Shown piece by piece: positions 8,941-59,505 of a stretch of 64,000 bases of DNA. How positions within the stretch are numbered: position 1 is the first letter of the stretch; each line of letters begins with the position of its first letter. The DNA comes from an uncultured Bacilli bacterium (GTDB taxonomy: Bacteria; Bacillota_I; Bacilli_A; RF39; UBA660): assembly GCA_910578855.1 (NCBI GenBank), contig CAJTRV010000001.1, positions 1,430 to 65,429 on the forward strand. The letters are read 5' to 3'. The translations under genes were made by a program, and so were the position numbers. The notes beneath the pieces were generated by a model, which did not search any database, was not told the origin of the DNA, and saw nothing but the letters and a program-made list of their open reading frames with translations.

Positions 8941-9204
8941 CTATTTTGCATCCTTGTTATTCTCCATAAGTTTTTCATAACCATCAAAAAATTTTCTAAT
9001 GTCAAAATTATATTTTTGAGATAAAAAGAAAAGGGTATCTAGTGAAATTCCTGTATCTACATTAGGACTTTCAATGTGAGATATAAAACTTCTACTCATA
9101 TCTGTATCTTCTGCCATTTTTTCTTGAGACTTACCAATTATATCTTTTCTTATGGATTTCATATTTTGTCCTATAAGGGCGAAAAGTTCATAAGTATTTT
9201 TCAC
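8941..9204 (-). CDS. XRE-family helix-turn-helix transcriptional regulator
   Basis: SQEKMAEDTDMSRSFISHIE HTH motif. Small. Convergent/adjacent to the methyltransferase. Confidence 0.6.
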   Translation of the reverse strand: MKNTYELFALIGQNMKSIRKDIIGKSQEKMAEDTDMSRSFISHIESPNVDTGISLDTLFFLSQKYNFDIRKFFDGYEKLMENNKDAK

Positions 9205-9346: not shown

Positions 9347-9610
9347 TTATCGCCTAGGAATACGACGATTTTCAATATTTTTCCTTTTCTCAAATAATTG
9401 GAAAAGTTCAACATTAAGTGTAGTCGCGATGTGATCAATATAGTCGATTCTAGTATTTCTTTTAGCATTTTCCAAATTAGATACGTAAGTAGGTGTAGTT
9501 CCAAGCTTATCTGCAAAATCTTCTTGGGACCAACCATTTTGCAATCTATAGTAAACAATATTATTTGCTAAAATATTACGAGCACTTGATTTTAATTTAA
9601 TTGTCATCAC
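9347..9610 (-). CDS. XRE-family helix-turn-helix transcriptional regulator
   Basis: WSQEDFADKLGTTPTYVSNLENAKRNTRID is a classic HTH_3 pattern. Confidence 0.65.
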   Translation of the reverse strand: MMTIKLKSSARNILANNIVYYRLQNGWSQEDFADKLGTTPTYVSNLENAKRNTRIDYIDHIATTLNVELFQLFEKRKNIENRRIPRR

Positions 9611-10386: not shown

Positions 10387-10974
10387 ATGTTACAAGTTAG
10401 TAGAGCAAATAATCTTAAAATTCCAAAAACAATAGAAAATATTAGTGGAAATTTAAATAGTGTTGATGATAAGGTTGCAGTAAAACAAGCAATAGCTACA
10501 GCAAACAATCAAAAATTTGATAAGAAAAAAGTAAAAGAAAATGAAGAAAAGGATATGGAATTAGAAAGAATAGAAAAAATTCCATTTAATGCAAATGATT
10601 TAATGGTTATCACTGTTGTAAAAAAGCTAGGTGCTTATATAATTGCTGTTACTGAAAAATCTCCAGCTAAATATAGAGGTGTATTTGTTAATCGTATGCA
10701 AAATCTATCTTTAGAAATACTAGAATTACTTCTTCAAGCTAACTTTGTAAGAATTGATAGTTTAGATAATAAGAAAAAGAGAGAAGAATATCAAAAAGAT
10801 GCAATAATAAAATTAAAAATGTTAGGATATATAGCTATGGTGGCAGAAAATTCTAAATGTATATTATCTAAACAGTTTAAACAAATTTCGATTCAAATTG
10901 GTGAATCTATTAATTTAATAGCTGCTTGGAAAAAAAGCGACGATAATAGATGGAGTAGTCGTACAAATAATTAA
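10387..10974 (+). CDS. avd: Avd-like four-helix-bundle accessory protein of the DGR (possible true start at internal Met near 10555)
   Basis: C-terminal region KDAIIKLKMLGYIAMVAENSKCILSKQFKQISIQIGESINLIAAWKK resembles the Avd / 'S23 ribosomal-protein-like' four-helix-bundle family (LxxLGYI...EIGKML pattern). Basic. Located immediately upstream of TR-RT. Confidence 0.45.
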   Translation: MLQVSRANNLKIPKTIENISGNLNSVDDKVAVKQAIATANNQKFDKKKVKENEEKDMELERIEKIPFNANDLMVITVVKKLGAYIIAVTEKSPAKYRGVFVNRMQNLSLEILELLLQANFVRIDSLDNKKKREEYQKDAIIKLKMLGYIAMVAENSKCILSKQFKQISIQIGESINLIAAWKKSDDNRWSSRTNN

Positions 10975-11144: not shown

Positions 11145-11353
11145 TTTTGAAGAGATTTAATAATCTAAAAAACAGGTCAGAGAAATATATTTTAAGTAAA
11201 ATATATCAGAACTTTAAAGCAAAGGAATTATTTACTTTTCTAACCGCTATAATAGTGCGGTGGATAAATTTTTAACACCCACACAAGCAACGATAAAAAT
11301 ATCTTTGCAAGTTATAAGGGGTGTTTTTTTATTATTTATGGGGAGGATTTTTT

Positions 11354-12382
11354 ATGAAATTAGAAGAGATATTTACATTTGAAAATATATATAATGCCCA
11401 TAAAAAATGTAGAAGATCAAAACAACATAAAGGAGAAGTAATAAGATTTGAAGTAAATATTTCTGAAAATATTTGCAAATTACAAAAGGAAATAATATCA
11501 AAGAAATATAAAGTAGGAAAATATAAGGAATTTATAATATATGAACCAAAAGAAAGATTAATACAAGCTCTTCCATATAGAGATAGAATTGTATTAAGAT
11601 GTTTTTGCGATAATGTTTTAATTCCAAAGATTGAAAAAAAACTAATAAATGATAATGTTGCTTGTAGAAAAGGTAAAGGAACAAAATATGGAATGGATAG
11701 ATTGAAATATTTTTTACAAAAAGAATATTTTAAGAATAACGATAATAAAGTTTATTATTTGAAATGTGATATTCGTAAATATTTTCCTAGTATTAACCAC
11801 AATATTTTAATAAATAATCTAAAAAGGATTGGCTTTTCAGATGATGAATTTTGGTTTATAAACAAAATTATAAATGAACAACCTGATAATTTAGAAAAGG
11901 GTTTAGCATTAGGAAATCAATCAAGTCAATGGTTTGCTTTATATTATCTTGATAAAATTGATAGATTAATCAAAGAAAAACTTAAAGTTAAATGTTATGT
12001 TAGATATATGGATGATTTTATTTTAATTCATCGTGATAAAAAATATCTACAATATTGTTTGAAAATAATTAATAAAGTTTGTAATGAAGAATTAAATTTA
12101 GAACTTAATCAAAAAACTCAAATTGGTGTTGCCTATAATGGAATTGATTTTCTAGGATTTAATCATATTTTGACTGATAGTGGTAAAGTTATTAGAAAAC
12201 TTAGATTTTCATCTAAACAAAGAATGAGAAAACATATTAAAACTATAAAAAAACTTAAAGATAAATCTATAATTGATGAAGAATATGTTGGTATGAGAAT
12301 AAATGCTTTCAAAGCACATCTAAAATATTCTAATGAAAAAAGTATGGATAAATTATTATCAAATTTAGATAAAAACCTATAA
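11354..12382 (+). CDS. Diversity-generating retroelement reverse transcriptase
   Basis: RT motifs LKCDIRKYFPSINH (motif 3) and YVRYMDDFILI (YxDD). DGR-specific LGNQSSQ (I/LGxxxSQ in place of the group II intron QGxxxSP). About 340 aa. No maturase or endonuclease domains. RBS ggggagg precedes ATG 11354. Confidence 0.85.
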   Translation: MKLEEIFTFENIYNAHKKCRRSKQHKGEVIRFEVNISENICKLQKEIISKKYKVGKYKEFIIYEPKERLIQALPYRDRIVLRCFCDNVLIPKIEKKLINDNVACRKGKGTKYGMDRLKYFLQKEYFKNNDNKVYYLKCDIRKYFPSINHNILINNLKRIGFSDDEFWFINKIINEQPDNLEKGLALGNQSSQWFALYYLDKIDRLIKEKLKVKCYVRYMDDFILIHRDKKYLQYCLKIINKVCNEELNLELNQKTQIGVAYNGIDFLGFNHILTDSGKVIRKLRFSSKQRMRKHIKTIKKLKDKSIIDEEYVGMRINAFKAHLKYSNEKSMDKLLSNLDKNL

Positions 12383-12447: not shown

Positions 12448-14373
12448 ATGTATAATAATCAAGATTTAACTTTATTGTCGGAAGGACAAATTTGGGGGAA
12501 TGGTAATGAAGCCCAATTAGAAGTAATTAGAAAATATGGAACTAAGGCAGCAATTACAGATTTATGTGTTTTGACTGGTAGCTATTTATGTGAAGATACG
12601 GATTATAATATAGATGAAGATAGTTCATTAAAAGGTAGAACTAGTTGGTTTTGGACTAGATCTGATGATAATGACAATGATGTCCGCGCGGTCGATCGGG
12701 ATGGTACTAGGGACCACGAATGTAGGTATGAACGCATTGGTGCTGTTCGCCCAGCTTTGCAATCTTCTGTAATCTTTTCTCAAATCTCCCCGAACAGAGT
12801 GAGGGGATACAACGGAACTGAAGAAGTAGAATATGGTGAATATCCACAATATGCTGCTGATTCAAGAATGCAAAGTATATTAGAATCAGAATATAATAGG
12901 GGAATGAATAAAACAGGAAGAAGTTATACTTTTGATTCAGTAAAATATGACGATTATGATACTGGCTTTAAACCAGTGACTTATGAAGAATATGAATATC
13001 AAGGAAAAAAATATATTCGCATAAGGGCAAATTCTGATTTTGGTGGAAATAAATTTAAACTTTCAAATGGTATTGAATATAGAGATGGTGATTATGTTTG
13101 GGTAGAAGTATCACCTGTAAAATGGTTAATTGATGATAGAACAGGAATATTAATTTCAAAAAGAGGATTAGTTTCTGGAATAAGATTTCTTGATAAAAGA
13201 ACTAATTATAAAGGTGATTTTAGTAGAACAGAAATGAAGGAATATCTTGATAGATATATGATACGCGATTTAACTCAGACAGCAACATTTACTCGTGTTC
13301 AAGATATGACACCAGAAGAAAAAGCTCAATTTGAAGAAGAAAGAAAGCAAGCTGAAAAAAGAAGAAATCCTTATGGTTTAAAATTTGGACAAGTTAGTGA
13401 AGAAGAAATTATTAAAGGTGCAATAGAAAGTGGTGTTGCAGTATTCTTACATGGGCCTTCATCAGAAGGTAAATCTGCAAGAGTAAAGCAAATAGATCCT
13501 ACTTGTGAAATAATATATCTTCGTAATGCTACACCAGAAAGTTTAAATGGTAAAAGTGTATATAATCAATCAACAGGTGAGATGATGGATGTTCCACCAA
13601 CTTGGTTAAAGAAATTACAAGAAAAATGTGAAAAGGAACCTGATAGACTTCATGTAGTATTCTTTGATGAAATAACAAATGCACTACCTAGCATTCAAGG
13701 TATAGCATTTAATATAGTATTAGATAGAGAAGTTAATGGTATATGGAAATTGCCAGATAATGCTAGAATCGTTGCAGCAGGAAATGATATGAAAGATTCA
13801 TTAGCTGCAAATCAATTAGCAGAACCATTATTTAATAGATTTGCCCATGTTTATATTAAAACAACTACTGAGGGTTGGTTAAAATGGGCAAGTGAACATA
13901 ATATACATCCTGCTATTTACTCATATATTGCTTATAAAAAGGGCGAAACATTAAGAAGTAAATATGATGGTGAAAAACCTAACGCAGATCCAAGAAAATG
14001 GGAAATGGCTTCAAAAATGTTATATGCAACAGGAAGCCCTGAAATGTTAAGGGCGTTAGTTGGAGAGGATATTACAAGAGAATTTGTAGAATTCTGTAAT
14101 CAACAAGTTATAACATTAGATGATGTTATAAATGGAAATTATACCGATAGAGATATACAGGCATTAAATACTGCTGAAAGATATGCAACAACTATGGGAT
14201 TATCACAAGTTGATGATAATAACTTAGAAAAAGTAAGGGGTTTTGTTGCAGGTTTAGGAGCAGAGTTTGGAGCAATTTTTGATGCTTTATGGACACATGG
14301 CGATGAAAGTAAATTGGAAAGACTTGCAGAAGCAAAACTTGCTGAAATGCCAGGAGGAGGTATAAGAAGATAA
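12448..14373 (+). CDS. DGR target protein: N-terminal C-type-lectin-like variable domain fused to a MoxR/AAA_5-class AAA+ ATPase
   Basis: VR-encoded SWFWTRS...VRAVDRDGTRDHECRYERIGAVRPAL matches the DGR CLec consensus (WW.RS ... GVRP). The C-terminal half has Walker A LHGPSSEGKS, Walker B HVVFFDEITNA, sensor-1 RIVAAGN and PLFNRFAHVYI (the MoxR 'ALLDRF' motif). No signal peptide. Confidence 0.8.
   Translation: MYNNQDLTLLSEGQIWGNGNEAQLEVIRKYGTKAAITDLCVLTGSYLCEDTDYNIDEDSSLKGRTSWFWTRSDDNDNDVRAVDRDGTRDHECRYERIGAVRPALQSSVIFSQISPNRVRGYNGTEEVEYGEYPQYAADSRMQSILESEYNRGMNKTGRSYTFDSVKYDDYDTGFKPVTYEEYEYQGKKYIRIRANSDFGGNKFKLSNGIEYRDGDYVWVEVSPVKWLIDDRTGILISKRGLVSGIRFLDKRTNYKGDFSRTEMKEYLDRYMIRDLTQTATFTRVQDMTPEEKAQFEEERKQAEKRRNPYGLKFGQVSEEEIIKGAIESGVAVFLHGPSSEGKSARVKQIDPTCEIIYLRNATPESLNGKSVYNQSTGEMMDVPPTWLKKLQEKCEKEPDRLHVVFFDEITNALPSIQGIAFNIVLDREVNGIWKLPDNARIVAAGNDMKDSLAANQLAEPLFNRFAHVYIKTTTEGWLKWASEHNIHPAIYSYIAYKKGETLRSKYDGEKPNADPRKWEMASKMLYATGSPEMLRALVGEDITREFVEFCNQQVITLDDVINGNYTDRDIQALNTAERYATTMGLSQVDDNNLEKVRGFVAGLGAEFGAIFDALWTHGDESKLERLAEAKLAEMPGGGIRR
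12682..12760 (+). repeat. DGR variable repeat (VR) inside the target gene (codons about 79-104)
   Basis: Matches TR 11066..11144. Substitutions occur only where TR has A (a->g/c/t). Confidence 0.85.
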
Positions 14374-14765
14374 TGGAAAATAAAAAGGAAATATTATTGT
14401 CATATATAAGGACAAATGTTGCACCAATATTAGTTGATTTTATATCTGGTAAAGATTTGAATGGTGCAGTAGTATTGCCTGCTAATGTTGATGTTAAAGA
14501 ATTAAATGGTCATTATGATGGAGCAGATTTTATGCCACCAAAATGGCTTAATGAGATATTAAGTACAAATGCTAGTAAAATATTAGTAATAGATAAAATT
14601 GATACTATTTCAAAAGAAGAACAATTAAAATTTTGTGAATTATTAGAACATAGAAAAATATCTACATTTGAATTACCAAAAAGTTGTGTGATAATTGTAA
14701 CAGCAAACGAAATAAATAAAGATAAGATAAACGAAGAAATATTCTCATTAGTTGCACGAATTTGA
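14373..14765 (+). CDS. AAA-like domain fragment protein (Walker-B/sensor-1-like motifs, no Walker A). Translationally coupled to the DGR target.
   Basis: TAATG overlap at 14371-14375. KILVIDKID (hhhhD), CVIIVTAN (sensor-1-like). No GxxGxGKS. Confidence 0.4.
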   Translation: MENKKEILLSYIRTNVAPILVDFISGKDLNGAVVLPANVDVKELNGHYDGADFMPPKWLNEILSTNASKILVIDKIDTISKEEQLKFCELLEHRKISTFELPKSCVIIVTANEINKDKINEEIFSLVARI

Positions 14766-14775
14766 GGTATAAATT

Positions 14776-16386
14776 ATGAAATATGATATTGCAGCGTTAA
14801 AAAGAAAAATGCTTGTTAAATATCCCTTTTTTGGGAGTGTGGTAGCAAGTGTAGGTTATAAAGAAAACAAAGATATACCAACCGCAGGTACAGATGGAGA
14901 AACAATTTACTATAATCCTGAATATTTGGAAAGTTTAAGTGTTGAAGAACAGACTTTTATATTTGCTCATGAAGTATGTCATATTGCATTTAATCATATA
15001 TTAAGAAGTGAAGATAAAGATCCAGATTTATGGAATATTGCTACTGATGGTGTTATTAATCAATTTTTGAAACGAGATGGATTAAAAATGGCGCCGGGTG
15101 GAGTTGATATGGCAGAAGCTATTAATTACGATGCTGAACAGTTATATGAAAAACTATTACAAGAAAAACAGCAAAGACAACAGCAACAACAAACTGGACA
15201 AGGTAATAGTCAAAATCAACAAGGTAATCAGCAACAAAATCAACAACAAAGCGGTGGTAGTAGTCAAGGCGAAAATAACCAACAACAACCCCAATCACAA
15301 CAACAGAGTGGCGATTCACAAAATCAAGAACAAAATCAAGAAAATCAACAACAAAGTAGTGGTGGGGGGCAAAGTGGTGATGACCAACAGCAATCTCAAT
15401 CACAACAACAAGGTAGTTCAGGTGATGAAAGTTCACAAGAGCAAGATAAGCAATCACAAGAACAAAGCAGTGGTGGAACTGGGAAAGATTCACAAGAGGA
15501 AGATAAATCAAAACAAGATGTTGGACATGATACTCACAGCATGTGGGAACAAGCAGTTAAAAAGCATAAAGAGCAGCAAGAAAAATCTGATAAAAAAGAG
15601 AGTTTATTAGATAAGTTGTTAGGGAAAGATAAAGATAAAAAAGATAAAGAAAAAACTGAGCTTGAAAAGAAACAAGAAGAACTTGCAGAAATGGGAGAAA
15701 AAGATGCTTTTAAGAAAAATCTTGAAGATAAGAAAAAGCAACTTGAAGAATTAAAAGAAGCAATTTCTAAACAAGCATCACAAGCAGGAACTTCAACAAA
15801 TAGAGATGTTAGAACAGTTAATGATATTGGTACTGCAAAACCAATAGTTGATTGGCGATATATTTTAAGAGAAGCAATTAAATATGATGTAGATTGGTCA
15901 TATAAAAATGCTACATTAGAAGATGGTGTTGTTACTGCTAATTTAGAAGAACAACCAATGCCAGAAACTGAAATTGTTCTTGATACAAGTGGCTCAATAA
16001 ATGAAGTATTATTAAAGAACTTTTTAAGAGAATGTAAAAATATATTACAACATACTAAATTAAAAGTAGGATGTTTTGATACAGAATTTTATGGATTTCA
16101 AGAGATTAGAGCAGAAGAAGATATAGAAAATATGCGATTTGAAGGTGGTGGCGGTACTGACTTTGATGTCGCTGTAGGTGCTTTCTCAAGGCGAGTTGAA
16201 AATAAAATAATATTTACTGATGGAGAAGCTTCAATGCCGGATATGCCACTTGATGCAATATGGATAGTATTTGGTGGTGAAAGAATTAATCCTAAAGGTG
16301 GTAAAGTAATTCACATTACACCAGAACAATTGGATAGATTATATTCATACGAAATTGGGAGTGAAACCAGAGGAAGATCAAGATAA
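14776..16386 (+). CDS. Metallopeptidase-like (DUF2201-type HExxH) + von Willebrand factor A domain protein with central Q/S/N-rich disordered linker
   Basis: HEVCHIAFNH (HExxH), long polyQ/S segment, C-terminal VWA with MIDAS DTSGS...T...D. This is the family that pairs with MoxR AAA+ ATPases. Confidence 0.7.
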   Translation: MKYDIAALKRKMLVKYPFFGSVVASVGYKENKDIPTAGTDGETIYYNPEYLESLSVEEQTFIFAHEVCHIAFNHILRSEDKDPDLWNIATDGVINQFLKRDGLKMAPGGVDMAEAINYDAEQLYEKLLQEKQQRQQQQQTGQGNSQNQQGNQQQNQQQSGGSSQGENNQQQPQSQQQSGDSQNQEQNQENQQQSSGGGQSGDDQQQSQSQQQGSSGDESSQEQDKQSQEQSSGGTGKDSQEEDKSKQDVGHDTHSMWEQAVKKHKEQQEKSDKKESLLDKLLGKDKDKKDKEKTELEKKQEELAEMGEKDAFKKNLEDKKKQLEELKEAISKQASQAGTSTNRDVRTVNDIGTAKPIVDWRYILREAIKYDVDWSYKNATLEDGVVTANLEEQPMPETEIVLDTSGSINEVLLKNFLRECKNILQHTKLKVGCFDTEFYGFQEIRAEEDIENMRFEGGGGTDFDVAVGAFSRRVENKIIFTDGEASMPDMPLDAIWIVFGGERINPKGGKVIHITPEQLDRLYSYEIGSETRGRSR

Positions 16387-16518
16387 TTAAGGTTTGGGAC
16401 AAATAGTTCTAAATCTTTTTAATTTTGTAATTCACCTTTATATATAGGGAAAATTAATATTTTGTGTTATAATTAAATTGTACGATTAGGGCTTATTAAT
16501 TATAGGTATATTAAAGGA

Positions 16519-17979
16519 TTGAGTGATAGTATGAGAATAGGTTTAGATATAGATAATGTTGTAACCAATTTTGATAAAAAAATGTTAGAAGAATTTTATA
16601 AAGAAGATAAAAACAAAAGAAATAAGGGAATAGTTAATCCAGAAGGAAATTGGATTAAAAATATGTTTGATTGGTCAAATGATGAAATAGAGACCTTTTT
16701 TAATGACAATATGCAAGAATTTGCTAAAGAGTTAGAACCTAGAGAAGATGCTAAATATTATATGGATAAATTATTGGATGATGGGCATAGTTTATATTTA
16801 ATTTCACATAGAGCTTATCCACATTATACTGAACCATATAAAATTACTGAAAACTGGTTAAAAAAAAATAATATAAATTATACAAAATTAATACTTTCTA
16901 AAACTACAAATAAAAGTAAAGAATGTAAGGAAAATAACATTGATGTAATGTTTGATGATGTTAGAACTAATTGTCATCAATTGCAAGAAAGTGGTATTAA
17001 ATGTTATTTAATGGGAACAAACTATAATCAAAAAAAATTAGATGGATTAAAAGTAGTGAAAAATTGGAAGGAACTATATGAGGTGGTTAATAAAATGGAA
17101 AAGAAAAAAGTAATATTAGATACAGATATGTATAATGAAATAGATGATCAATTTGCATTAACTTATTTAATTAAATCATTGAATATTTTTGATTTACAAG
17201 CAATCACAATAGCTCCATTTTCAAAAAGTGGTTATGCTAATACTATGACTATTGAAGATGGAACAGAAAAAAGTTATGAGACAACTTTAAAAATATTAGA
17301 TATGTTGGATAAATCTGAATATAAAGATTTAGTATATAAGGGTGCAATAAAATATATGAAAGATAGTGAAGAAGATAATGATGCTGTAAATAAAATAATT
17401 GAAATATCAAATAAAAATGAAAAAACAACTATTTTAGCTATTGGAGCAATAACAAATGTTGCATTAGCTATTAAGAAAGCACCTGAAATTATTAGCAAAA
17501 TAAATGTAGTATGGTTAGGTGGTAATACTTTCTTAACTAAAGATAATAGTGAATTTAATTTTAGACAAGATATAAAAGCAGTACAAACAGTATTTAATTC
17601 AGGCGTTGAATTAGTTGTTATTCCATGTAGAAATGTTGCTTCTAATTTATCAACTACAATTTATGAATTACAACATTATTTAAGTGAGAATACAGAATTA
17701 AATAAATATTTAATTGATATTTTTATTAAGTGCAAAAAATCATTTATGAAAGAACCTAAAGATGAAATAGGTTCTAGTAAAACATTATGGGATCTAAGTG
17801 CAATAGCTTATGAGATAAATGCAGATTGGTTTAAATCTGAAATGATAAGTTGTCCTAATGTTCTTGATAATGGTTTATATGAACAAACAGAAAACAGACA
17901 TAATGTAATATTTGTGAATGATTTATATCGCAATAAAATATATCAAGATTTCTTTATTAAAATGGGATATAAAATTTAG
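16519..17979 (+). CDS. Fusion protein: HAD-type 5'(3')-deoxyribonucleotidase-like domain + inosine-uridine-preferring nucleoside hydrolase domain
   Basis: N-terminal GLDIDNVV (DxDxV HAD motif I). C-terminal LDTDMYNEIDDQFAL matches the nucleoside hydrolase DxDxxxDD signature. Confidence 0.6.
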   Translation: MSDSMRIGLDIDNVVTNFDKKMLEEFYKEDKNKRNKGIVNPEGNWIKNMFDWSNDEIETFFNDNMQEFAKELEPREDAKYYMDKLLDDGHSLYLISHRAYPHYTEPYKITENWLKKNNINYTKLILSKTTNKSKECKENNIDVMFDDVRTNCHQLQESGIKCYLMGTNYNQKKLDGLKVVKNWKELYEVVNKMEKKKVILDTDMYNEIDDQFALTYLIKSLNIFDLQAITIAPFSKSGYANTMTIEDGTEKSYETTLKILDMLDKSEYKDLVYKGAIKYMKDSEEDNDAVNKIIEISNKNEKTTILAIGAITNVALAIKKAPEIISKINVVWLGGNTFLTKDNSEFNFRQDIKAVQTVFNSGVELVVIPCRNVASNLSTTIYELQHYLSENTELNKYLIDIFIKCKKSFMKEPKDEIGSSKTLWDLSAIAYEINADWFKSEMISCPNVLDNGLYEQTENRHNVIFVNDLYRNKIYQDFFIKMGYKI

Positions 17980-18016
17980 AATAACTAGATACTAATATTG
18001 TGTAGAGGGTGATTAG

Positions 18017-18541
18017 ATGAAAGTATATATAGTAAGACATGGTCAAGTTTCACATAATGCTTTGAATCAATATAATACGAGTGATGAAGATTTAACAGAT
18101 TTAGGAATAAAGCAAGCAGAAGAATTAAGAAGCAAAATTCAAAATATACATTTTGATATTGTTATATCATCGCCATTATTAAGAGCTACTCATACAGAAT
18201 ACATACTTACAAATTATGATAATAGTATAATTACTGATGAAAGGTTAAGAGAAAGAAGCTGTGGTACTTTAAGTGGACAACCACTTGAAGTTACGAATAG
18301 AGAAGAATATTGGAATTATTATAGTGATGTTCAATATGGTATAAATGAAAATATACAAGATTTCTTTAAAAGAGTTTATAATTTTTTAGATGATCTTAAA
18401 ACAAAAGATTATAAAAGTGTTTTAATAGTTGCTCATAGTGGAGTTTCAAAAGCTTTTAGTGGTTATTTTGAAGGGATAAAGGATGGCAAATTTTTAAACA
18501 GAGGATTAAAAAATTGTGAAATTAAGGAGTATGAATTATGA
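18017..18541 (+). CDS. Histidine phosphatase superfamily (phosphoglycerate mutase-like) protein
   Basis: VRHGQ (RHG catalytic motif) at the N-terminus. About 175 aa. Confidence 0.65.
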   Translation: MKVYIVRHGQVSHNALNQYNTSDEDLTDLGIKQAEELRSKIQNIHFDIVISSPLLRATHTEYILTNYDNSIITDERLRERSCGTLSGQPLEVTNREEYWNYYSDVQYGINENIQDFFKRVYNFLDDLKTKDYKSVLIVAHSGVSKAFSGYFEGIKDGKFLNRGLKNCEIKEYEL

Positions 18542-19158
18542 AATTAACCAGTAAAGAAGCAAGAGAATTTTTAGAAAATGAAAGAGCCAATTTTGAAAAT
18601 CAAAGATGGATAAATCATAGTGTTTGTGTAGGAGATACTGCTGGTAAAATTGCTGAAGCTTTGTATAAAAAAGATATTAATGTAGATATTGATAAAACAA
18701 TTGCATTAGGGTATATTCATGATATTGGCAAAAAATTTAATGAACATGGAGGAGTATTTCCACATGCAATAAATGGGTATAACTATATTAAAGAATTAGG
18801 ATATGATGAAGAATATGCAAGTATTTGTATTAAACATTCATTTCTAAACAATGATATAGATTGTATATCAAACGATAGAGATGAAACTGATAAATCTAAT
18901 CCTAATTATAATTTTGTAAAAGAATATATAAGCAAAGAATATAGTATTGAGGAAAAAATAATTAATTTATGTGATTTAATGTGTATAACTAAAACATTAA
19001 CTGTAGAAAAAAGAATGATAGATTTATTACTAAGGCATGGAGTATTTAAAAAGACACATTATCATATAGAAGAAACTATGAAATTAAAAGAATATTTTGA
19101 TGATTTATTAGGATATAATTTATATGATTTATTTCCAGAAATTAAAGATAATCTATAG
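18538..19158 (+). CDS. HD-domain phosphohydrolase
   Basis: H...YIHDIGK (HD motif). ATGA overlap with the upstream gene. Confidence 0.55.
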   Translation: MKLTSKEAREFLENERANFENQRWINHSVCVGDTAGKIAEALYKKDINVDIDKTIALGYIHDIGKKFNEHGGVFPHAINGYNYIKELGYDEEYASICIKHSFLNNDIDCISNDRDETDKSNPNYNFVKEYISKEYSIEEKIINLCDLMCITKTLTVEKRMIDLLLRHGVFKKTHYHIEETMKLKEYFDDLLGYNLYDLFPEIKDNL

Positions 19159-19169
19159 TTGGTGGTATT

Positions 19170-19772
19170 ATGACTATAAAAGATATGAAACAAGCTGTTA
19201 AGCTTTTAGAAAATGAATGGGATTTGGGAGAAAAGGAATCGGGAGCATCAAGGCATCTATGTGCATGGATTTACTTGATGGAAATATTAGAAGAAACCGA
19301 ACAATTTGTGTATTATAGAGAGAATGGTAATCTTTTAGGATTTGCTGGATATTCTAATGATAAATCAAAAAAGCATCTATTAAAAAAGAAATTTTATTCA
19401 TTTATAAAAAAACAATTGTATAAAAGCAAAGAAATAAAAGATATAAAAGCATTACATGAGTATGAAGATAATTACTACTATGTACCAGATGAATTGAAAA
19501 ATTACTTTGATGGAGAAGTATCTATGCTAATAATTGATGAAAAAATAAGAGGCAAAGGAATTGGAAAAAAATTACTTTTAGAAGTATTCGCTCTAGCTAA
19601 AAAAGATAATATGAAAAATCTTCAAATACTAACTGATGATTCTTGCAATTATTATATATATGAGTCATTAGGATGTAAGAAAGTATATGAAACAGTAATA
19701 GAAAATAAAGAATATGGTAAATTAGGTAATATTACAAAGGAAACTGCTTATATTTATGAAAAAGTATTATAA
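19170..19772 (+). CDS. GNAT-family N-acetyltransferase
   Basis: IRGKGIGKKLL (acetyl-CoA binding motif A). Confidence 0.55.
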   Translation: MTIKDMKQAVKLLENEWDLGEKESGASRHLCAWIYLMEILEETEQFVYYRENGNLLGFAGYSNDKSKKHLLKKKFYSFIKKQLYKSKEIKDIKALHEYEDNYYYVPDELKNYFDGEVSMLIIDEKIRGKGIGKKLLLEVFALAKKDNMKNLQILTDDSCNYYIYESLGCKKVYETVIENKEYGKLGNITKETAYIYEKVL

Positions 19773-19889
19773 ATTAGTGAAATAATATTCCCTATGAAAA
19801 AGGATATAGTAAAAAATTAGAAAATAATTAGTTCTATTGACTAATTTATACTAAACTATTATAATAATCTACCGAAATGAGGCGATTTT

Positions 19890-20531
19890 ATGTCAAGAGA
19901 ACAAAATGTAATAAATTATTATGTTATATGTAATAGATTAAAAAATGTTATCAGAACTGGTTGGAAAAATTGGAATGTGCAAAGAGAAAGAATTGAAAGT
20001 GTTGCGGAGCATATATTTGGTGTTCAAATGCTTGCAATTGCAATGAAGTCAGAGTATCAATATGATGTTGATATAATGAAAGTTATATTTATGCTAGCGA
20101 TACATGAACTTGGTGAAACAGTTATAGGCGACTTAACTCAATTTGAAATATCCAAAGAGGAAAAGGAAAAATTAGAGCATGAAGCAGTGCATAGAATATT
20201 AGGCGGTTTATTAGATGGTAACCAAATTGAAGCATTATTTTTAGAATTTGATTCCCATAGTACAAAAGAATCTATGTTTGCATATCAATGTGATAAGTTG
20301 GAATGTGATTTACAAAGTAAATTATATGATGAAGAAGGTTGTGTTGATTTAGATAAACAGGATGGTAATGAAACAATGAAAAATTCAAGAGTTCAAGAAT
20401 TGTTAAAAACAGGTGCTTCATGGTCAACTATGTGGCTTCAATTTGGACAACAAGTTTATCCATACGATGATAATTTTAGAGCAGTTTCTAATTATGCTAT
20501 AAATAATGAAATAGGTCCAAAAAGGAAATAA
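19890..20531 (+). CDS. HD-domain 5'-deoxynucleotidase (YfbR-like)
   Basis: SVAEHIF...AIHELGETVIGDLT: the H..HE/D..D metal-binding pattern of YfbR-type HD hydrolases. Confidence 0.6.
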   Translation: MSREQNVINYYVICNRLKNVIRTGWKNWNVQRERIESVAEHIFGVQMLAIAMKSEYQYDVDIMKVIFMLAIHELGETVIGDLTQFEISKEEKEKLEHEAVHRILGGLLDGNQIEALFLEFDSHSTKESMFAYQCDKLECDLQSKLYDEEGCVDLDKQDGNETMKNSRVQELLKTGASWSTMWLQFGQQVYPYDDNFRAVSNYAINNEIGPKRK

Positions 20532-20657: not shown

Positions 20658-21521
20658 ATGTTAAATACTCAATCTATGAATCTTGATTTAATTAGAACCT
20701 TTGTAATTGTTGGTCAATCTAGGGATTATAATGACGCTGCTTCAAAGTTAAATATGGATAGATCTAATGTATCAAGACATATTAAAACTCTTGAAGAATT
20801 AATGGGAACTAAATTAATAAATAAAAATGCTAAAAACTATATTGAATTAACAGAAGATGGTAAGGTGTTATTTGATGGATATGAAAAAGCATACAATTTA
20901 TTATTTATTACTGAAAAGACATATTTACAAAATAAAGACTTAAATAGTGGTAAAATATCAATTGGTATTTCTAGTGATATAGAATCTAAAATTTTAATTG
21001 ATAAAATAGTAGATTTTAAAAAGAAATATGCTGATACAGCATTTAAAACAATAAATTTACCTTCAAAAAGTTTAGTAGAAAAGTTATCACATTATACACT
21101 TGACTTTGTTATAGATGAAAAATCAGATAGTTATAAGAAAAGTAGTGGTGTTAAATCTATAGATTTATTTGATGAAGAATACTGTCTAGTATATTCAAAA
21201 AATAATTTTGCTATTTCAGATATTTCAGATTTAAAAGATCTTTCATTTATATTACCTGTTAGTACAAAACAAGAAAGAAAATTATTTGAAGAATATTTAA
21301 GTGATAATCAAATAACAAGAAGATTATCTATAGAAACATCTAATTATTTTTCTTCAATCGAATATGCTAAGAATGGATTAGGAGTAGCTTTAGTTCCTAA
21401 AAGTATGATAGTTGATGAATTAGAAGTTTTTGATATTGATTTAAAAAAGACTATCACATTAAGTTATGTTGAGAATAATTTATCACCATCATCAAAAGAG
21501 TTTTTGAAAGAATTTAAATAA
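20658..21521 (+). CDS. LysR-family transcriptional regulator
   Basis: N-terminal HTH (LIRTFVIVGQSRDYNDAASKLNMDRSNVSRHIKTLEE) plus substrate-binding-domain-sized C-terminus. Confidence 0.7.
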   Translation: MLNTQSMNLDLIRTFVIVGQSRDYNDAASKLNMDRSNVSRHIKTLEELMGTKLINKNAKNYIELTEDGKVLFDGYEKAYNLLFITEKTYLQNKDLNSGKISIGISSDIESKILIDKIVDFKKKYADTAFKTINLPSKSLVEKLSHYTLDFVIDEKSDSYKKSSGVKSIDLFDEEYCLVYSKNNFAISDISDLKDLSFILPVSTKQERKLFEEYLSDNQITRRLSIETSNYFSSIEYAKNGLGVALVPKSMIVDELEVFDIDLKKTITLSYVENNLSPSSKEFLKEFK

Positions 21522-21575
21522 TATACTAAAAATATTTATAATCTAATTTCAATTTTGAAGTTAGATTTTTTTTAA

Positions 21576-21587
21576 TGCAATTTTGCA
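21576..21587. promoter_or_regulatory. Operator copy TGCAA-TT-TTGCA upstream of the radical SAM gene
   Basis: tgcaattttgca, followed by a ttgact/-10-like region. Confidence 0.45.
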
Positions 21588-21666
21588 TATACAATTGTAA
21601 AATTGACTGGATATATTTGGCAATAAAGATGTTAGAATAATCACTAATTAAAAAAGAGGTGATTTT

Positions 21667-22791
21667 ATGTCTGTAATTGAAATGCACTCTAGTTGGCTTG
21701 CTATTAATTCAATCGTTGGATGTCCTAATGGATGTAAATATTGTTTATTACAAGCTACTAATGATAATAATTGTTTACCTAAAGAATTAGCGACACCAGA
21801 AGAAGCAGTTAAGCAATTATTAGAGTACAAATATTATGACAAAGATATTCCAGTATGTTTATTGCCTAATACAGATGTTTTTGTAAATCCAAAGAATGTT
21901 AAATACTTATTAAAATTACTAGATGAGATTGAAAAAAATAATATATTAAATGATTTAATTATTATTACAAAATGTAAAATAACAGATGAAGTTATAATGA
22001 AGGTAAAAGGCTTGAAATCAAAAGGTCAAAATGTTGTTTTCTATATTAGTTATTCTGGATTAGGAAAAGAAATAGAACCTAGAATATCAGAGGAAATATT
22101 AAGAGATAATTTTAAAAAACTAAGTGAAAATGGTATTGATGTAATTCACTATTATAGACCATTTCTACCACAAAATTCAGATCCGGAAAAAATTAAAGAA
22201 ATTCTTGATTATGTTAATCAATATACTGATATTTCAGTAACAACTGGATTAGCTCTTATTGAAACATTCATAAATAAAATTGATTGTTGGGATGAAATAA
22301 AAGAAAATAAAGAAGCTAGTTTAAAAGCAAATTGTGTATGGCCTGAAAGTGCTTGGAATTATTTTAATAATAATTATTCTCATCCACAACAAATATTTCA
22401 AACTAATACTTGTGGATTAAATACTAAATTAAAAAGGCCTTCAACACAATACTATGGAACAGAAGAATGCTTAAAATATAATCATTGTAGCAAAGAGCAA
22501 AGAGAACGTTGTAGATTAGCTCATCAAAAGATAAGTGAAGATTTAATAAAGATGAGATGTTCATTACTATTAAATAAATTAGGATTTGATTCTAATAATG
22601 TTGAATATATTTTTGATAAATATGGAAGTTTGGAACTTAAAAATATAGATTTAAAGATTAGTGATGCTTCTTATTTATCATATAAATTGGGAACAAAAGT
22701 ATATGTCTCTACTAATAATATTGTTAAAGATACTTATAATTCAACTTTAAATGGTGCTAAGCCACTTGTTTTAAAGGCAGGTGTTAAATAA
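21667..22791 (+). CDS. Radical SAM enzyme (CxxxCxxC at residues 19-26); subclass unassigned
   Basis: CPNGCKYC near the N-terminus. About 375 aa. Coupled (TAATG overlap) to the downstream MazG-Nudix gene. Confidence 0.6.
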   Translation: MSVIEMHSSWLAINSIVGCPNGCKYCLLQATNDNNCLPKELATPEEAVKQLLEYKYYDKDIPVCLLPNTDVFVNPKNVKYLLKLLDEIEKNNILNDLIIITKCKITDEVIMKVKGLKSKGQNVVFYISYSGLGKEIEPRISEEILRDNFKKLSENGIDVIHYYRPFLPQNSDPEKIKEILDYVNQYTDISVTTGLALIETFINKIDCWDEIKENKEASLKANCVWPESAWNYFNNNYSHPQQIFQTNTCGLNTKLKRPSTQYYGTEECLKYNHCSKEQRERCRLAHQKISEDLIKMRCSLLLNKLGFDSNNVEYIFDKYGSLELKNIDLKISDASYLSYKLGTKVYVSTNNIVKDTYNSTLNGAKPLVLKAGVK

Positions 22792-24344
22792 TGAATGATA
22801 TTATTAAATTCTTAGATGTTCATTATGATGCTGCTTTAAAATTAGTGAGTGATTTTGATATAACAAAAAATAAAGAGTGGGATCCACAAATATATTTAAA
22901 TGAGTTATATGTACAATTAGGTCATGTTTATAATGTTTTATTTGCTAATGAAAATGTTAATGAAAATAAAAGAAAAATAGATAATTTAGGTGATGAATTA
23001 TCTGATGTATTACTACAATTAATTAATTTAGCAAGAGTGTTAAATATAGATATGTATGAAATAAAAGAATATAAAGATTATAAGTATGATGATTTAAATG
23101 GATTAACAATTCTTTTAGGACAACTTACAGAAGCAGTTATGGAAATATATGAATGTCGTTTTAAAAAGAATAGAGCAGATTTTGATACAAGTTATGACTT
23201 TGTAAAAGATAGATTGTATAAATTATTTATTATTACATACAAAATATCTAAAAAATATAAATTAAATATGATTAAAGAATTTGATGATATGTTAAAAGAT
23301 GCAAATGGATTCTTAGATAGATTTAGAAAAGGTAGTAAAAATAAAGTAGAATTTATAGATATATTTGATAAAGATGGTAATTTACTTGGTTATTGTGAAA
23401 AAAATAATGCTCATAAATTAGGATATTATCATAAGGTATTTGGTTGTTTAATATATAACAATAAAAAGAATAAAGTGTTTTTACAATTAAAGAATCCAAA
23501 TCATAATAAAGTAAATAAGAAACCACTTCTTGAAATAACAGCTGGTGGACACTTGATGTCAGGAGAAACAGTTAGAAATGGTGTAAGAGAAATAAAAGAA
23601 GAAACAGGATTAGATGTTGAGTATGAAAAATTAACATTTATAGAAGAAAGAACTTGTAATAAAACAATCACAAAAGATTATAAAATACATGAATTTCAAT
23701 ATTATTATGCAGTAGATTTAAAAATAAATGTTGAAGATTTTAAAAATTATGATCCAGAAGAAGTTATGGGGTTTGTTGAATTAGATATACATGATTTATT
23801 AAGGTTACTAAATAACAAGGTTAAAAGAATAAAAGGAAAAAGAGAAAATGGTAAAATAGTAAATGTTACTAAAGATGATTTAGATAAAGCATATATTAAG
23901 AATGGTTTATATCTATCTTTATTAACAAAATTAAATATTAAGAAGGGGGAAAAAGTCATGAATAATAAGCTTAAAAAATTATATAAATATACTAATAAAC
24001 AAATAAAGAAAAATCCAAATATGTATTATTTTGATGATGGTACAGTTTGTCAAAACCAAGACTATGAAAAAGATAATGTGAAATATTCGGTTATGAAAGT
24101 TAATACAGATATTAATACAAATAATTATTTAGTATATTTACTTATAATAAGTGGTAAAAAATCCATACCACAAATGTTAGTCAGAAGTTTCAAAACTGAT
24201 AGAGGAACAACAACATATTTTAATAAGTTATGTTCTTTAGTTGAGAAAAATACTAATCAAGATATTATTTCAAAATGTTATGATAAACTAATTGAAAGCA
24301 ATCCAAAACCAACTCCATTATTTAGTAGAATATTTAACCTGTAA
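22791..24344 (+). CDS. Fusion of MazG-like NTP pyrophosphohydrolase domain and Nudix hydrolase domain
   Basis: N-terminal LGDELSDVLLQLINLA (MazG EExxE-type helix). Central Nudix box GGHLMSGETVRNGVREIKEETGL (Gx5Ex7REUxEExGU). Confidence 0.65.
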   Translation: MNDIIKFLDVHYDAALKLVSDFDITKNKEWDPQIYLNELYVQLGHVYNVLFANENVNENKRKIDNLGDELSDVLLQLINLARVLNIDMYEIKEYKDYKYDDLNGLTILLGQLTEAVMEIYECRFKKNRADFDTSYDFVKDRLYKLFIITYKISKKYKLNMIKEFDDMLKDANGFLDRFRKGSKNKVEFIDIFDKDGNLLGYCEKNNAHKLGYYHKVFGCLIYNNKKNKVFLQLKNPNHNKVNKKPLLEITAGGHLMSGETVRNGVREIKEETGLDVEYEKLTFIEERTCNKTITKDYKIHEFQYYYAVDLKINVEDFKNYDPEEVMGFVELDIHDLLRLLNNKVKRIKGKRENGKIVNVTKDDLDKAYIKNGLYLSLLTKLNIKKGEKVMNNKLKKLYKYTNKQIKKNPNMYYFDDGTVCQNQDYEKDNVKYSVMKVNTDINTNNYLVYLLIISGKKSIPQMLVRSFKTDRGTTTYFNKLCSLVEKNTNQDIISKCYDKLIESNPKPTPLFSRIFNL

Positions 24345-54805: not shown

Positions 54806-55073
54806 TATGAAAGGATAAAAAGGGGGATAAAATTATGGAAAGGAATAAAATAGAAAAAAAGATAAATAAAATTACTTATAACTGTGAATATGAATTAAAA
54901 ACAGACAAGCCAGATTTAACAAAAGATGATTTAATCAAAATTTTCAATCAAAAATATTACAATTATATAAAAAGAAAAGAAAATCGCCTTTTTATATGCT
55001 GTAATTTTGATTAAAATACGTTATAATTTATATAGGCCTTATATTACGACTAAAAATGAGGAGACGATTTTTT

Positions 55074-58790: not shown

Positions 58791-58809
58791 TTTTATGGAA
58801 AGGATTATT

Positions 58810-59505
58810 ATGAATCATTATATTGATAGTACAAATTTAAAGATGGATGCGACGATGAAGGAGATTGAGGCCTTGTGTCATGAGGCAATTCACTACCATT
58901 TTGAAACTGTATGTGTGCACCCTTATTATGTCCCATTTGCCAAAAAATTACTAGAAGGAAGTCCTGTTCAGATATGTACAGTAATTGGTTTTCCGTTGGG
59001 AATGAATACCAAACAAGTGAAGGTATATGAGGCAATTGAGGCTATCAATGAAGGGGCCGATGAGATAGATATGGTGATTAATGTTGGAGCACTCAAAGAT
59101 CGAGATTATGACTATATCAAAGATGAAATTGAAGAAGTAAGAGATGCGATCGATGGAAAAACACTAAAAGTGATTGTTGAAACAAGTTTACTTACAACTG
59201 ATGAATTAGCTAAAATGACCGAGATTTGTAATGAAACATTTGTTAACTTTATTAAAACATCGACAGGATTTGGAAGTCGTGGGGCCTCAGTAGCTGATAT
59301 CAAGACGATTATGGAGTATCGAAGTGATGTCTTAGAAGTAAAGGCGAGTGGGGGAATTAGAACGGATGAACAAGCACAAACTTTGATTGATATGGGGGTT
59401 ACGAGAATTGGTACGAGCCATGGGAAAGAATTGATGGCTATGGAACCTTATCACGATAGATGCCATATCTGTACAGGTACTTGTGAACATGAGGAGGGAG
59501 AATAG
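58810..59505 (+). CDS. deoC: Deoxyribose-phosphate aldolase with Cys/His-rich C-terminal tail
   Basis: DeoC core (ICTVIGFPLG...Schiff-base region VKASGGIRT). RBS ggaaagga before ATG 58810. Tail HDRCHICTGTCEHEEGE. Confidence 0.8.
   Translation: MNHYIDSTNLKMDATMKEIEALCHEAIHYHFETVCVHPYYVPFAKKLLEGSPVQICTVIGFPLGMNTKQVKVYEAIEAINEGADEIDMVINVGALKDRDYDYIKDEIEEVRDAIDGKTLKVIVETSLLTTDELAKMTEICNETFVNFIKTSTGFGSRGASVADIKTIMEYRSDVLEVKASGGIRTDEQAQTLIDMGVTRIGTSHGKELMAMEPYHDRCHICTGTCEHEEGE

Follow-up and report, generated by a model that had tools for sequence, protein, structure and literature searches.

We analysed a 64,000-nucleotide (nt) window of the genome of an uncultured Bacilli bacterium (GenBank assembly GCA_910578855.1, contig CAJTRV010000001.1). 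At 16519-20531 (all coordinates are those of the whole window) five consecutive genes on an integrative conjugative element (ICE) encode a fusion of an NT5C-type 5'(3')-nucleotidase with a nucleoside hydrolase (NH), a histidine phosphatase (HisPhos), an HD-domain metal hydrolase, a GNAT acetyltransferase and an HD_3 protein. Comparison with other loci (labelled L001-L150) revealed that this block is mosaic cargo of the ICE and not a fixed five-gene system. The conserved core is the fusion and the HD protein, with HisPhos and GNAT as recurrent optional partners and HD_3 as a loosely associated extra. We propose that the core belongs to an accessory, horizontally traded cassette that would degrade nucleotides to base and sugar, in the service of house-cleaning, detoxification or catabolism and not of defence, a reading that we give an even chance of being right.

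A two-gene core within mosaic cargo

The five open reading frames (ORFs) lie on the + strand at 16519-17979, 18017-18541, 18538-19158, 19170-19772 and 19890-20531, in agreement with a preliminary description of this DNA. The gaps between them are 38, -4, 11 and 118 nt, the first four genes being tightly packed. Annotation with Pfam profiles confirmed the superfamilies named in that description: NT5C (54.5 bits) and IU_nuc_hydro (97.1 bits) in the N- and C-terminal parts of the fusion, His_Phos_1 (118.2 bits, with RHG at residues 7-9), HD (36.9 bits), GNAT (Acetyltransf_1, 36.2 bits) and HD_3/YfbR-like (98.1/28.7 bits, both above the cut-off). The cluster is indeed co-directional. However, this is uninformative, since nearly the whole ICE is encoded on the + strand. 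A stretch of 13.4 kb containing all eight genes from the fusion to a downstream NUDIX gene was found again at 99.7% identity in independent sequencing runs. None of these eight proteins reached an NCBIfam equivalog, and a megablast search of the 8-kb region against plasmid and phage collections gave no match.

The 150 comparison loci were drawn from genomes, metagenomes, viral contigs and exact-protein look-ups. ORFs were called and proteins clustered on the first 136 loci plus the window, and the remaining loci were taken as annotated. A full-length fusion was present in 55 loci. At 95% identity these fall into 40 groups, of which 35 were informative (the dereplicated loci below). An HD gene is found no more than 2 kb downstream of the fusion and on the same strand in 27/35 dereplicated loci, is nearby in 2 more and is absent in 6. 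The two genes often overlap by 4-14 nt, and their linkage spans 28-93% identity and several genomic contexts. HisPhos accompanies the fusion in 11/55 loci and the 200-aa GNAT family in five, with differing gene order (e.g. fusion-GNAT-...-HD in L062 and L078), whilst HD_3 was found in three groups only and the whole five-gene set only in copies of this same element. The association of fusion and HD is beyond chance and that of HisPhos and GNAT moderately so, whereas that of the five-gene set is not. Of the joint module envisaged in the preliminary description, the fusion and HD pair is therefore what related elements conserve; HisPhos and GNAT are occasional and HD_3 is rare.

The boundaries of the cargo are apparent from two related elements. 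DNA comparison with a sister ICE (L060/L137) showed homology to the window up to 16426, followed by 5 kb of other cargo. The sister retains the fusion (90% identity) and HD (85%) and is without HisPhos, GNAT and HD_3, and the HisPhos gene, absent there, is an indel between the fusion and HD genes. A further ICE relative (L148-150) has the backbone genes for LysR, radical SAM, NUDIX, adhesin, single-stranded DNA-binding protein (SSB), pilin and VirB4, and has neither the cassette nor the diversity-generating retroelement (DGR) of the window; it becomes homologous to the window from 20547 onwards, immediately past the stop of HD_3. These comparisons identify the five genes as the last part of a variable cargo arm and the LysR, radical SAM and NUDIX genes as backbone. 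An earlier suggestion of metabolic cargo was thus right as regards cargo.

Two wider groupings were considered and rejected. An eight-gene nucleotide module including the LysR, radical SAM and MazG/NUDIX genes fails because these are backbone genes that occur without the cassette; the radical SAM and MazG/NUDIX genes were found in none of the other fusion loci. Oxetanocin-like biosynthesis by HD and radical SAM proteins, an idea taken from a PDB name, fails because the radical SAM gene is backbone and its product has no match to a B12-binding domain.

The sister ICE has further genes of its own. After the fusion, HD and a 394-aa membrane protein gene it carries an AAA_15/AAA_21 ATPase and a 311-aa RVT_1 reverse transcriptase (RT; L060 13299-15316, L137 11854-13871), which look like a defence-type pair. 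Upstream are a Flavoprotein (CoaC-like) gene, a DFP (CoaB-like) gene, an aldolase_II-like gene and a WYL regulator.

The nucleotidase-nucleoside hydrolase fusion

The fusion ORF opens at a TTG codon (16519, 486 aa), with an alternative ATG at 16531 (482 aa; 16531..17979, + strand). The ATG is probably the true start, as homologues begin with MRIG and the gene caller gives 482 aa on a 99.7%-identical contig. An exact-sequence look-up of the window protein returned no record because the ORF had been taken from the TTG. Residue numbers below are those of the 486-aa ORF.

The NT5C domain (PF06941; 16537..17088, residues 7-190) covers profile positions 4-174 of 180 and scores well above the cut-off of 24.8 bits. 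The catalytic motifs of the HAD superfamily are present, namely D10-I-D12-N-V (motif I), K132 and D146-D147 (motif IV), and D10, D12, K132 and D147 are invariant in 16 fusions with identity down to 28%. The NH-fold domain (PF01156; 17110..17979, residues 198-486; cut-off 34.2 bits) is more unusual. A DxDxxxDD motif had been reported here. The sequence is in fact DTDMYNEIDD, or DxDx5DD, with five residues between the Asp pairs, and so departs from the calcium-/ribose-binding fingerprint. N206 and E207 sit inside this insert and are both invariant among the same 16 fusions, together with D201, D203, D209, D210, N313, E345, N347 and D425. The residue before D425 is W424, with W in close relatives and F, Y or W in distant ones, whereas IU-NH has His; by position, we infer that W424/D425 correspond to the leaving-group His241 and the calcium-binding Asp242 of IU-NH/CU-NH. 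The domain reached no named NCBIfam equivalog (RihA, RihB, RihC, UriH), its best score being 64 bits against the RihC cut-off of 382. An AlphaFold2 model of the fusion was obtained with a predicted local distance difference test score (pLDDT) of 88.7, and its NH domain matches RihA/YeiK/IU-NH/Urh1 structures in Foldseek (E down to 6e-17, target template modelling score, TM, 0.66-0.76, and 0.70-0.76 for RihA/YeiK/IU-NH), with the match to RihA at E 6e-17 and a target TM of 0.76. Judged by these residues both active sites look intact, that of the NH domain being non-canonical.

The fusion had been described as unusual. It is uncharacterised yet not rare, with relatives in more than 100 clusters at 90% identity (61-88% identical to it, nearly all with two domains), which source annotation gives as 'nucleoside hydrolase' only. 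Metagenomes added over 455 further relatives, either of the fusion or of one of its domains alone. In a library clustered at 50% identity about 10 clusters are full fusions, and many stand-alone NH (~300 aa) and NT5C (~190 aa) proteins also match. Genomes with fusion relatives are metagenome-assembled genomes (MAGs) of uncultured gut "Bacilli bacterium" and Acholeplasma sp. CAG:878. On IMG/VR phage contigs the NT5C part was found alone, only two contigs holding the fusion. The motif DTDxYNE[IV]DD marks a broad subfamily, members of which are also encoded on their own in metagenomes from sea, soil and gut. Moreover, L014, L015 and L017 have the NT5C and NH domains as adjacent separate genes, which provides independent support for a functional link between them. 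A literature search found no relevant account of a nucleotidase-nucleosidase fusion, nor of nucleoside metabolism in this gut lineage.

The HD partner

The HD/HDIG metal hydrolase (18538..19158, + strand, 206 aa) overlaps the HisPhos stop by 4 nt and is the conserved partner of the fusion. Six residues in the arrangement H..HD..H..H..D are diagnostic of a dinuclear HD site, for example that of YqeK, whereas mononucleotidases such as YfbR have H..HD..D (PMC8177086). The HD protein carries all six (H27, H61-D62, H76, H100, D146), and they are invariant in 28 homologous sequences. It is likely, on these ligands, to be of the dinuclear phosphodiesterase/diphosphatase type and nearer to PgpH/YqeK than to the nucleotidases. 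A PDB sequence search with this protein gave nothing useful.

The HD gene can vary independently of its surroundings. In L001 the fusion, HisPhos and GNAT are 93%, 95% and 88% identical to those of the window and HD (L001 2055-2660) only 61%, which suggests that the HD allele was replaced inside an otherwise conserved cassette. HD genes are also found without the fusion, in L139 (10001-11229) beside an ITPase-like NTPase_I-T gene, a Phd/ParE pair and a split serine recombinase, and in L143 (10001-11045) beside an ASCH-domain gene in a chromosomal setting.

The optional partners

HisPhos (18017..18541, + strand, 174 aa) belongs to branch 1 of its superfamily and has RHG and AHSG motifs. Its best matches, all sub-threshold, are CobC alpha-ribazole phosphatase, PspA and PGM. 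The GNAT acetyltransferase (19170..19772, + strand, 200 aa) is of a family found beside the fusion in four other loci with another gene order. HD_3 (19890..20531, + strand, 213 aa), an HDDC2-like putative 5'-nucleotidase, is the last cargo gene before the ICE backbone. It is preceded by the 118-nt gap, in which there is a promoter-like site (19837-19865), and it probably has its own promoter.

HD_3 had been called a YfbR-like HD 5'-deoxynucleotidase. The HD_3 and YfbR-like Pfam matches point that way. However, with 17 bits the protein stays far below the 122 bits required by the NCBIfam equivalog for 5'-deoxynucleotidase, its closest solved relative is human HDDC2 (E 7.5e-15), and its second motif is H-E (AIHELGE, aligned to vHDmaE of HDDC2), which differs from the mononuclear H..HD..D pattern. 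The H-E dyad is conserved in 5/5 members of the HD_3 clade. These members (the window, L004, L028, L029 and L074) read HELGE or HETEE, with Glu for Asp in the HD dyad, and the other metal ligands seem to be kept.

Genomic settings of the core

Mobile elements of at least three types carry the fusion and HD pair, which was also seen in places where no mobile marker was in view. The pair is present in the family of DGR-bearing ICEs (L002, L011, L012, L060, L137, L145), in an adhesin-bearing ICE-like region with HD_3 before and APH after it (L004/L028), in Tn4451-like units with TnpV and a large serine recombinase (L037, L061, L062, L075, L078) and in tyrosine-integrase islands (L035; L140/L141). 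In human-gut relatives of ~48% identity (L037 2666-12550, L061, L062, L069, L075, L078) the pair sits between TnpV and the large serine recombinase, where Tn4451-like mobilisable transposons have their cargo. L037 was taken from the viral collection IMG/VR, and its visible part resembles nested transposon units and not a phage. No mobile marker was found within 10 kb of the core, in BLAST searches with a limited query set, on a 638-kb contig, a 105-kb contig, a 1.2-Mb circular genome and several large human-gut contigs. On the 105-kb contig the core lies beside GNATs, an ABC-F protein and an arginase.

Several gene families recur around the core. In L140/L141 a NUDIX gene is directly upstream of the fusion, translationally coupled to it in L140, along with a Cof-type HAD and a second NT5C-like gene. 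Elsewhere the neighbours include a PHP phosphoesterase (L013, L095), MFS transporters, a peptidase C26 protein, ABC transporters, GNAT, GNAT_C, APH, MGMT and Tag. Tandem paralogues of the nucleotidase and NH genes occur in L077 and L083. The recurrent NUDIX, PHP, ITPase-like and extra HAD neighbours belong to families whose characterised members yield nucleoside monophosphates (NMPs). Taken together, the neighbours resemble a funnel that feeds NMPs into irreversible disposal, accompanied by transporters and acetyltransferases.

The gene directly after the fusion and HD often encodes a ~394-aa multi-pass membrane protein without a Pfam match (15 members in 10 loci). This protein is encoded downstream of HD in L011, L012, L035, L060, L068, L073 and L074 and absent from the window, and could be a transporter of the substrate or products.

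Proposed function and alternatives

The steps proposed here are inferred from family membership and conserved catalytic residues. The dinuclear HD enzyme would cut a phosphodiester or pyrophosphate bond of a larger nucleotide (perhaps a dinucleoside or nucleoside polyphosphate, or else a dinucleotide, linear or cyclic) to leave a mononucleotide, with HisPhos and HD_3 perhaps taking off other phosphates. In other loci NUDIX, PHP, ITPase-like and MazG-type enzymes may likewise turn larger nucleotides into monophosphates. The HAD NT5C domain would then dephosphorylate the resulting (deoxy)nucleoside monophosphate, (d)NMP, to a nucleoside, the fused NH domain would split its N-glycosidic bond to give free base and sugar, and the fusion of the two domains would favour hand-over of the nucleoside. 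Small-genome gut Bacilli could in this way remove nucleotides that are unwanted, non-canonical or analogues, or render them harmless, or could catabolise a surplus; detoxification and nutrition are not separable on sequence data. The funnel-like neighbour set argues that house-cleaning, detoxification or catabolism fits better than a sensor-effector immune system. The route from NMP to base and sugar had been anticipated in the preliminary description, and at the family level it is supported by catalytic residues invariant down to 28% identity and by the RihA-like fold. The description of all five products as nucleotide-dephosphorylating or -cleaving enzymes went too far. As a family-level expectation it covers only the fusion and HD_3; it is conjectural for HisPhos and HD, and GNAT falls outside it.

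Several observations weigh against the proposal. The activities of the cassette enzymes are predictions, HisPhos is a generic phosphatase, and the closest structure matches of HD, to PgpH and HD-GYP proteins, are weak and at the level of the general fold (Foldseek E >= 0.016, not significant, TM ~0.5). The atypical DxDx5DD motif and the Trp in place of the IU-NH His suggest that the true substrate of the NH domain may not be an ordinary ribonucleoside. The cassette contains no ribokinase, phosphorylase, phosphopentomutase or recognised nucleoside transporter, which leaves a purely nutritional role undocumented. Moreover, destruction of nucleotides seems costly in a lineage suspected to be auxotrophic, and frequent carriage by mobile elements is equally compatible with anti-defence. 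The limited mobile-marker survey also makes the lack of a marker around some cores weak evidence.

Salvage or catabolism for nutrition alone, with nucleotides giving bases for phosphoribosyltransferases and ribose or deoxyribose for energy, strikes us as unlikely. It would suit a small-genome, host-dependent gut bacterium. In its favour, the family is abundant in one gut lineage (the "Bacilli bacterium" MAGs and Acholeplasma sp. CAG:878), chromosomal copies exist, and paralogues have expanded beside MFS and ABC transporters. Purine-auxotrophic protozoa depend on multiple NH enzymes. The host could use deoxyribose through deoC, which is present within the window (58795-59505) as had been pointed out. 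However, deoC is 38 kb away and outside the ICE, and an NH enzyme yields free sugar and not sugar-1-phosphate, while the cassette has neither ribokinase nor deoxyribokinase. The GNAT, APH, MGMT/Tag and NUDIX/ITPase-like neighbours fit salvage poorly, as does the position of the pair in the cargo slot of Tn4451-like transposons, the usual seat of resistance genes, and auxotrophy of the host is an assumption only. That the five genes have no joint function and are unrelated cargo side by side in a variable region of the ICE is improbable. In favour of such an explanation are the demonstrable mosaicism of the block, the probable separate promoter of HD_3 and the co-directionality of the entire ICE. 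It is at odds with the linkage of fusion and HD in 27/35 dereplicated loci across 28-93% identity and several contexts, with the recurrence of HisPhos and the same GNAT family beside the core in shuffled order and with the tight packing of the first four genes, and the linkage statistics contradict chance for four of the five.

The remaining alternatives concern immunity. A defence or anti-defence module, as raised in the preliminary description, found no direct support. Orthologous clusters in core salvage contexts free of mobile elements were to count against the description, and this was borne out by half: orthologous fusion and HD pairs lie on large contigs, the 638-kb contig and the 1.2-Mb circular genome among them, where no marker was found within 10 kb, yet these settings are not classical nucleoside-salvage operons. 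PADLOC-DB v2 gave no match for the fusion, HisPhos, GNAT or HD_3, and for HD only a marginal similarity to the Cas3 HD domain (E 0.005, 15 bits). Anti-defence cargo, shielding an ICE or transposon on entry into a new host, is nonetheless conceivable, although we consider it quite unlikely. HD would linearise or cleave an immune signalling nucleotide (a cyclic di- or oligonucleotide, or one derived from ADP-ribose, ADPR), and the fusion and NUDIX-type partners would destroy the products. XopQ, a member of PF01156, cleaves 2'cADPR and blocks type VI Thoeris (bioRxiv 10.64898/2026.06.15.732069), and offers a precedent. The carriage of the core by ICEs, Tn4451-like units and integrase islands is in keeping with this, as are the cyclic-dinucleotide phosphodiesterases (PgpH, HD-GYP) among the closest HD structures, the atypical NH motif, which could mean a non-nucleoside substrate, and the coupling of NUDIX to the fusion in L140. 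A weak Tad4-like match also lies 5 kb off in L035, and the ICE has an orphan C5 methylase and SSB, as in leading regions. On the other hand, neither oriT nor relaxase was located, so that a leading-region position is only supposed. XopQ was absent from the 23 PDB sequence matches of the NH domain and from its best 50 fold matches, and no sponge or nuclease anti-defence family turned up, in searches that included no dedicated anti-defence library. The pair is also found on large contigs with no mobile marker in view, its tandem paralogue arrays and transporter linkage look metabolic, and the DTDxYNExDD subfamily occurs widely in marine and soil metagenomes as a gene on its own, without conserved neighbours in the loci that were compared.

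A related idea, to which we allow a slender chance, is that fusion and HD together form a counter-defence or counter-toxin device of mobile elements that fully erases a nucleotide signal or poison. The PgpH/YqeK-like HD may open a cyclic or dinucleotide, ADPR-derived or polyphosphate messenger, the DxDx5DD NH domain may act on the resulting nucleoside or, by analogy with XopQ, directly on a larger ribosyl-linked signal, and the NT5C domain may remove the phosphate so that the messenger cannot be rebuilt. Defence by nucleotide depletion, in which (d)NMP pools are drained to starve phage, is very improbable. Enzyme classes of this type do occur in depletion-based defence, and a LysR regulator lies downstream. 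However, the LysR gene belongs to the ICE backbone and not to the cassette, no PADLOC model is matched beyond the marginal Cas3 similarity, and there is no sensor, trigger or toxin-control domain. The fusion is expected from its families to act on monophosphates, not dNTPs, and constitutive depletion would be self-toxic.

Relation to known systems

The predicted steps of the degradative cassette resemble, in the same order, those of YjjG/SurE and RihA/B/C in E. coli and of Sdt1/Phm8 and Urh1 in yeast, which take NMP to nucleoside and then to base and ribose. The cassette differs in having both predicted activities on one polypeptide and a HAD domain of the NT5C type, and its NH domain differs from Rih and Urh1 in the DxDx5DD motif, in Trp for the IU-NH His, in its pairing with HD and in its carriage by mobile elements. 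HAD motifs I, III and IV are common to the fusion and to the mitochondrial and cytosolic 5'(3')-deoxyribonucleotidases and their bacterial and phage homologues (PF06941). Unlike these enzymes, the fusion has this domain joined to an NH domain. YqeK (an Ap4A hydrolase) and PgpH (a c-di-AMP phosphodiesterase) are, like the HD partner, dinuclear HD enzymes, but the partner is only 17-21% identical to them and reaches no equivalog. HD_3 has a strong Pfam match to the family of HDDC2, YGK1 and YfbR but Glu for the Asp of the second motif. XopQ/HopQ1 shares PF01156 and a non-canonical aspartate motif with the NH domain, but the motif is of a different type, and XopQ/HopQ1 is a secreted plant-pathogen effector whereas the fusion is predicted to be cytosolic, in gut Firmicutes. 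XopQ shows that divergent PF01156 members can act on larger, immune-related substrates.

All parts of the cassette are known hydrolase superfamilies and the novelty lies in their combination. Literature searches found no account of the fused architecture, of an NH subfamily with DxDx5DD, of a dinuclear HD partner that looks obligate, of HD_3 with H-E or of such repeated carriage by mobile elements. New here are a single polypeptide that should bring a nucleotide to the free base, an atypical NH motif marking a large uncharacterised subfamily, a conserved partner of the dinuclear HD type, and repeated carriage as cargo by different mobile elements in abundant uncultured gut bacteria. If the substrates are damaged, modified or analogue nucleotides, the cassette would be a transferable nucleotide-sanitising or drug- or toxin-inactivating gut trait, with a bearing on nucleoside-analogue drugs. 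If they are ordinary nucleotides, genome-reduced gut bacteria would be trading salvage capacity horizontally. Immune messengers as substrates would mean a new enzyme class for anti-defence biology, and a signal-erasing device a new and widespread signal-destroying enzyme class on mobile elements of gut Firmicutes. For annotation, the fusion and HD pair should be treated as the unit, not the five-gene block.

The ICE and its surroundings

The chromosomal genes nusA, infB and rbfA (0.5-6.1 kb) precede the ICE, a block of lower GC than its flanks with nearly all genes on the + strand. After rbfA come an ABC protein, a C5 methylase, the Avd (10387-10974) and RT (11321-12382) of the DGR, a trio of genes, the five-gene block, LysR, radical SAM and MazG-like/NUDIX. 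These are followed by a TED/SpaA adhesin, SSB, pilin, the VirB4-like ATPase (33281-35758), an M23 peptidase, an N6 methylase, a primase, the coupling protein (51897-54200) and a large serine recombinase (55056-57113), after which come deoC and tyrS. Type IV secretion ATPase, coupling protein and recombinase are co-linear in a compositionally distinct block, which identifies it as an integrative conjugative element and places the cluster on an ICE as the preliminary description had done; the pilin, SSB and adhesin genes are further ICE markers. The backbone is common to L148-150. No relaxase was matched by Pfam among the ORFs scanned, and a repeat search within each end separately, the ends not being compared with each other, found no convincing flanking repeat as an attachment site.

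The cluster had been placed next to the DGR. Avd and RT do lie upstream, but three genes (12448-16386) stand in between. This trio, kept after the DGR RT in all members of the ICE family seen (L002, L011, L012, L060, L137, L145), encodes a 641-aa protein, a 130-aa protein and a DUF2201 VWA/metallopeptidase protein. The 641-aa protein has no Pfam match and has Walker A/B-like motifs in its C-terminal half. The DUF2201 protein has a long Q/S/G-rich low-complexity linker, which accounts for a GC bump and spurious overlapping ORFs at 15.1-15.6 kb. Just 3' of its gene a terminator-like hairpin with a T-run (16389..16417, + strand) marks the end of the upstream unit. Within the 130-nt gap 5' of the fusion gene, an extended -10-like element read from the sequence, TGTTATAAT (16465..16473, + strand), is a possible candidate for the cassette promoter.

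Two 87-aa ORFs (8941-9204 and 9347-9610) on the - strand are nearly the sole minus-strand genes of the ICE. Their homologues in L035/L036 are annotated HTH_3/HTH_31 (Xre-type) and likewise lie upstream of a fusion cassette, beside a C5 methylase.

On the other side of the block, the LysR, radical SAM (374 aa) and MazG-like/NUDIX (517 aa) genes (20658-24344) belong to the conserved backbone, and the same trio stands before adhesin, SSB, pilin and VirB4 in the cassette-less ICE relative (L148-150), which is very common. PDB sequence searches with the radical SAM and MazG/NUDIX proteins yielded nothing useful. Residues 19-26 of the radical SAM protein read CxxxCxxC, and the stop of its gene overlaps the NUDIX start. 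The protein belongs to a small family (277 proteins; JGI name 'DNA repair photolyase') with weak matches to the NCBIfam 'radical SAM mobile pair protein B' and PA0069 models, and the radical SAM protein of the L148-150-type ICE is indexed in 168 blocks of the collection. Outside the ICE, a gene of the cytidine/dCMP deaminase family, which also has a MafB19-like deaminase match, lies at 2009-2455 between nusA and infB, where ylxR/ylxQ are usual in Firmicutes.

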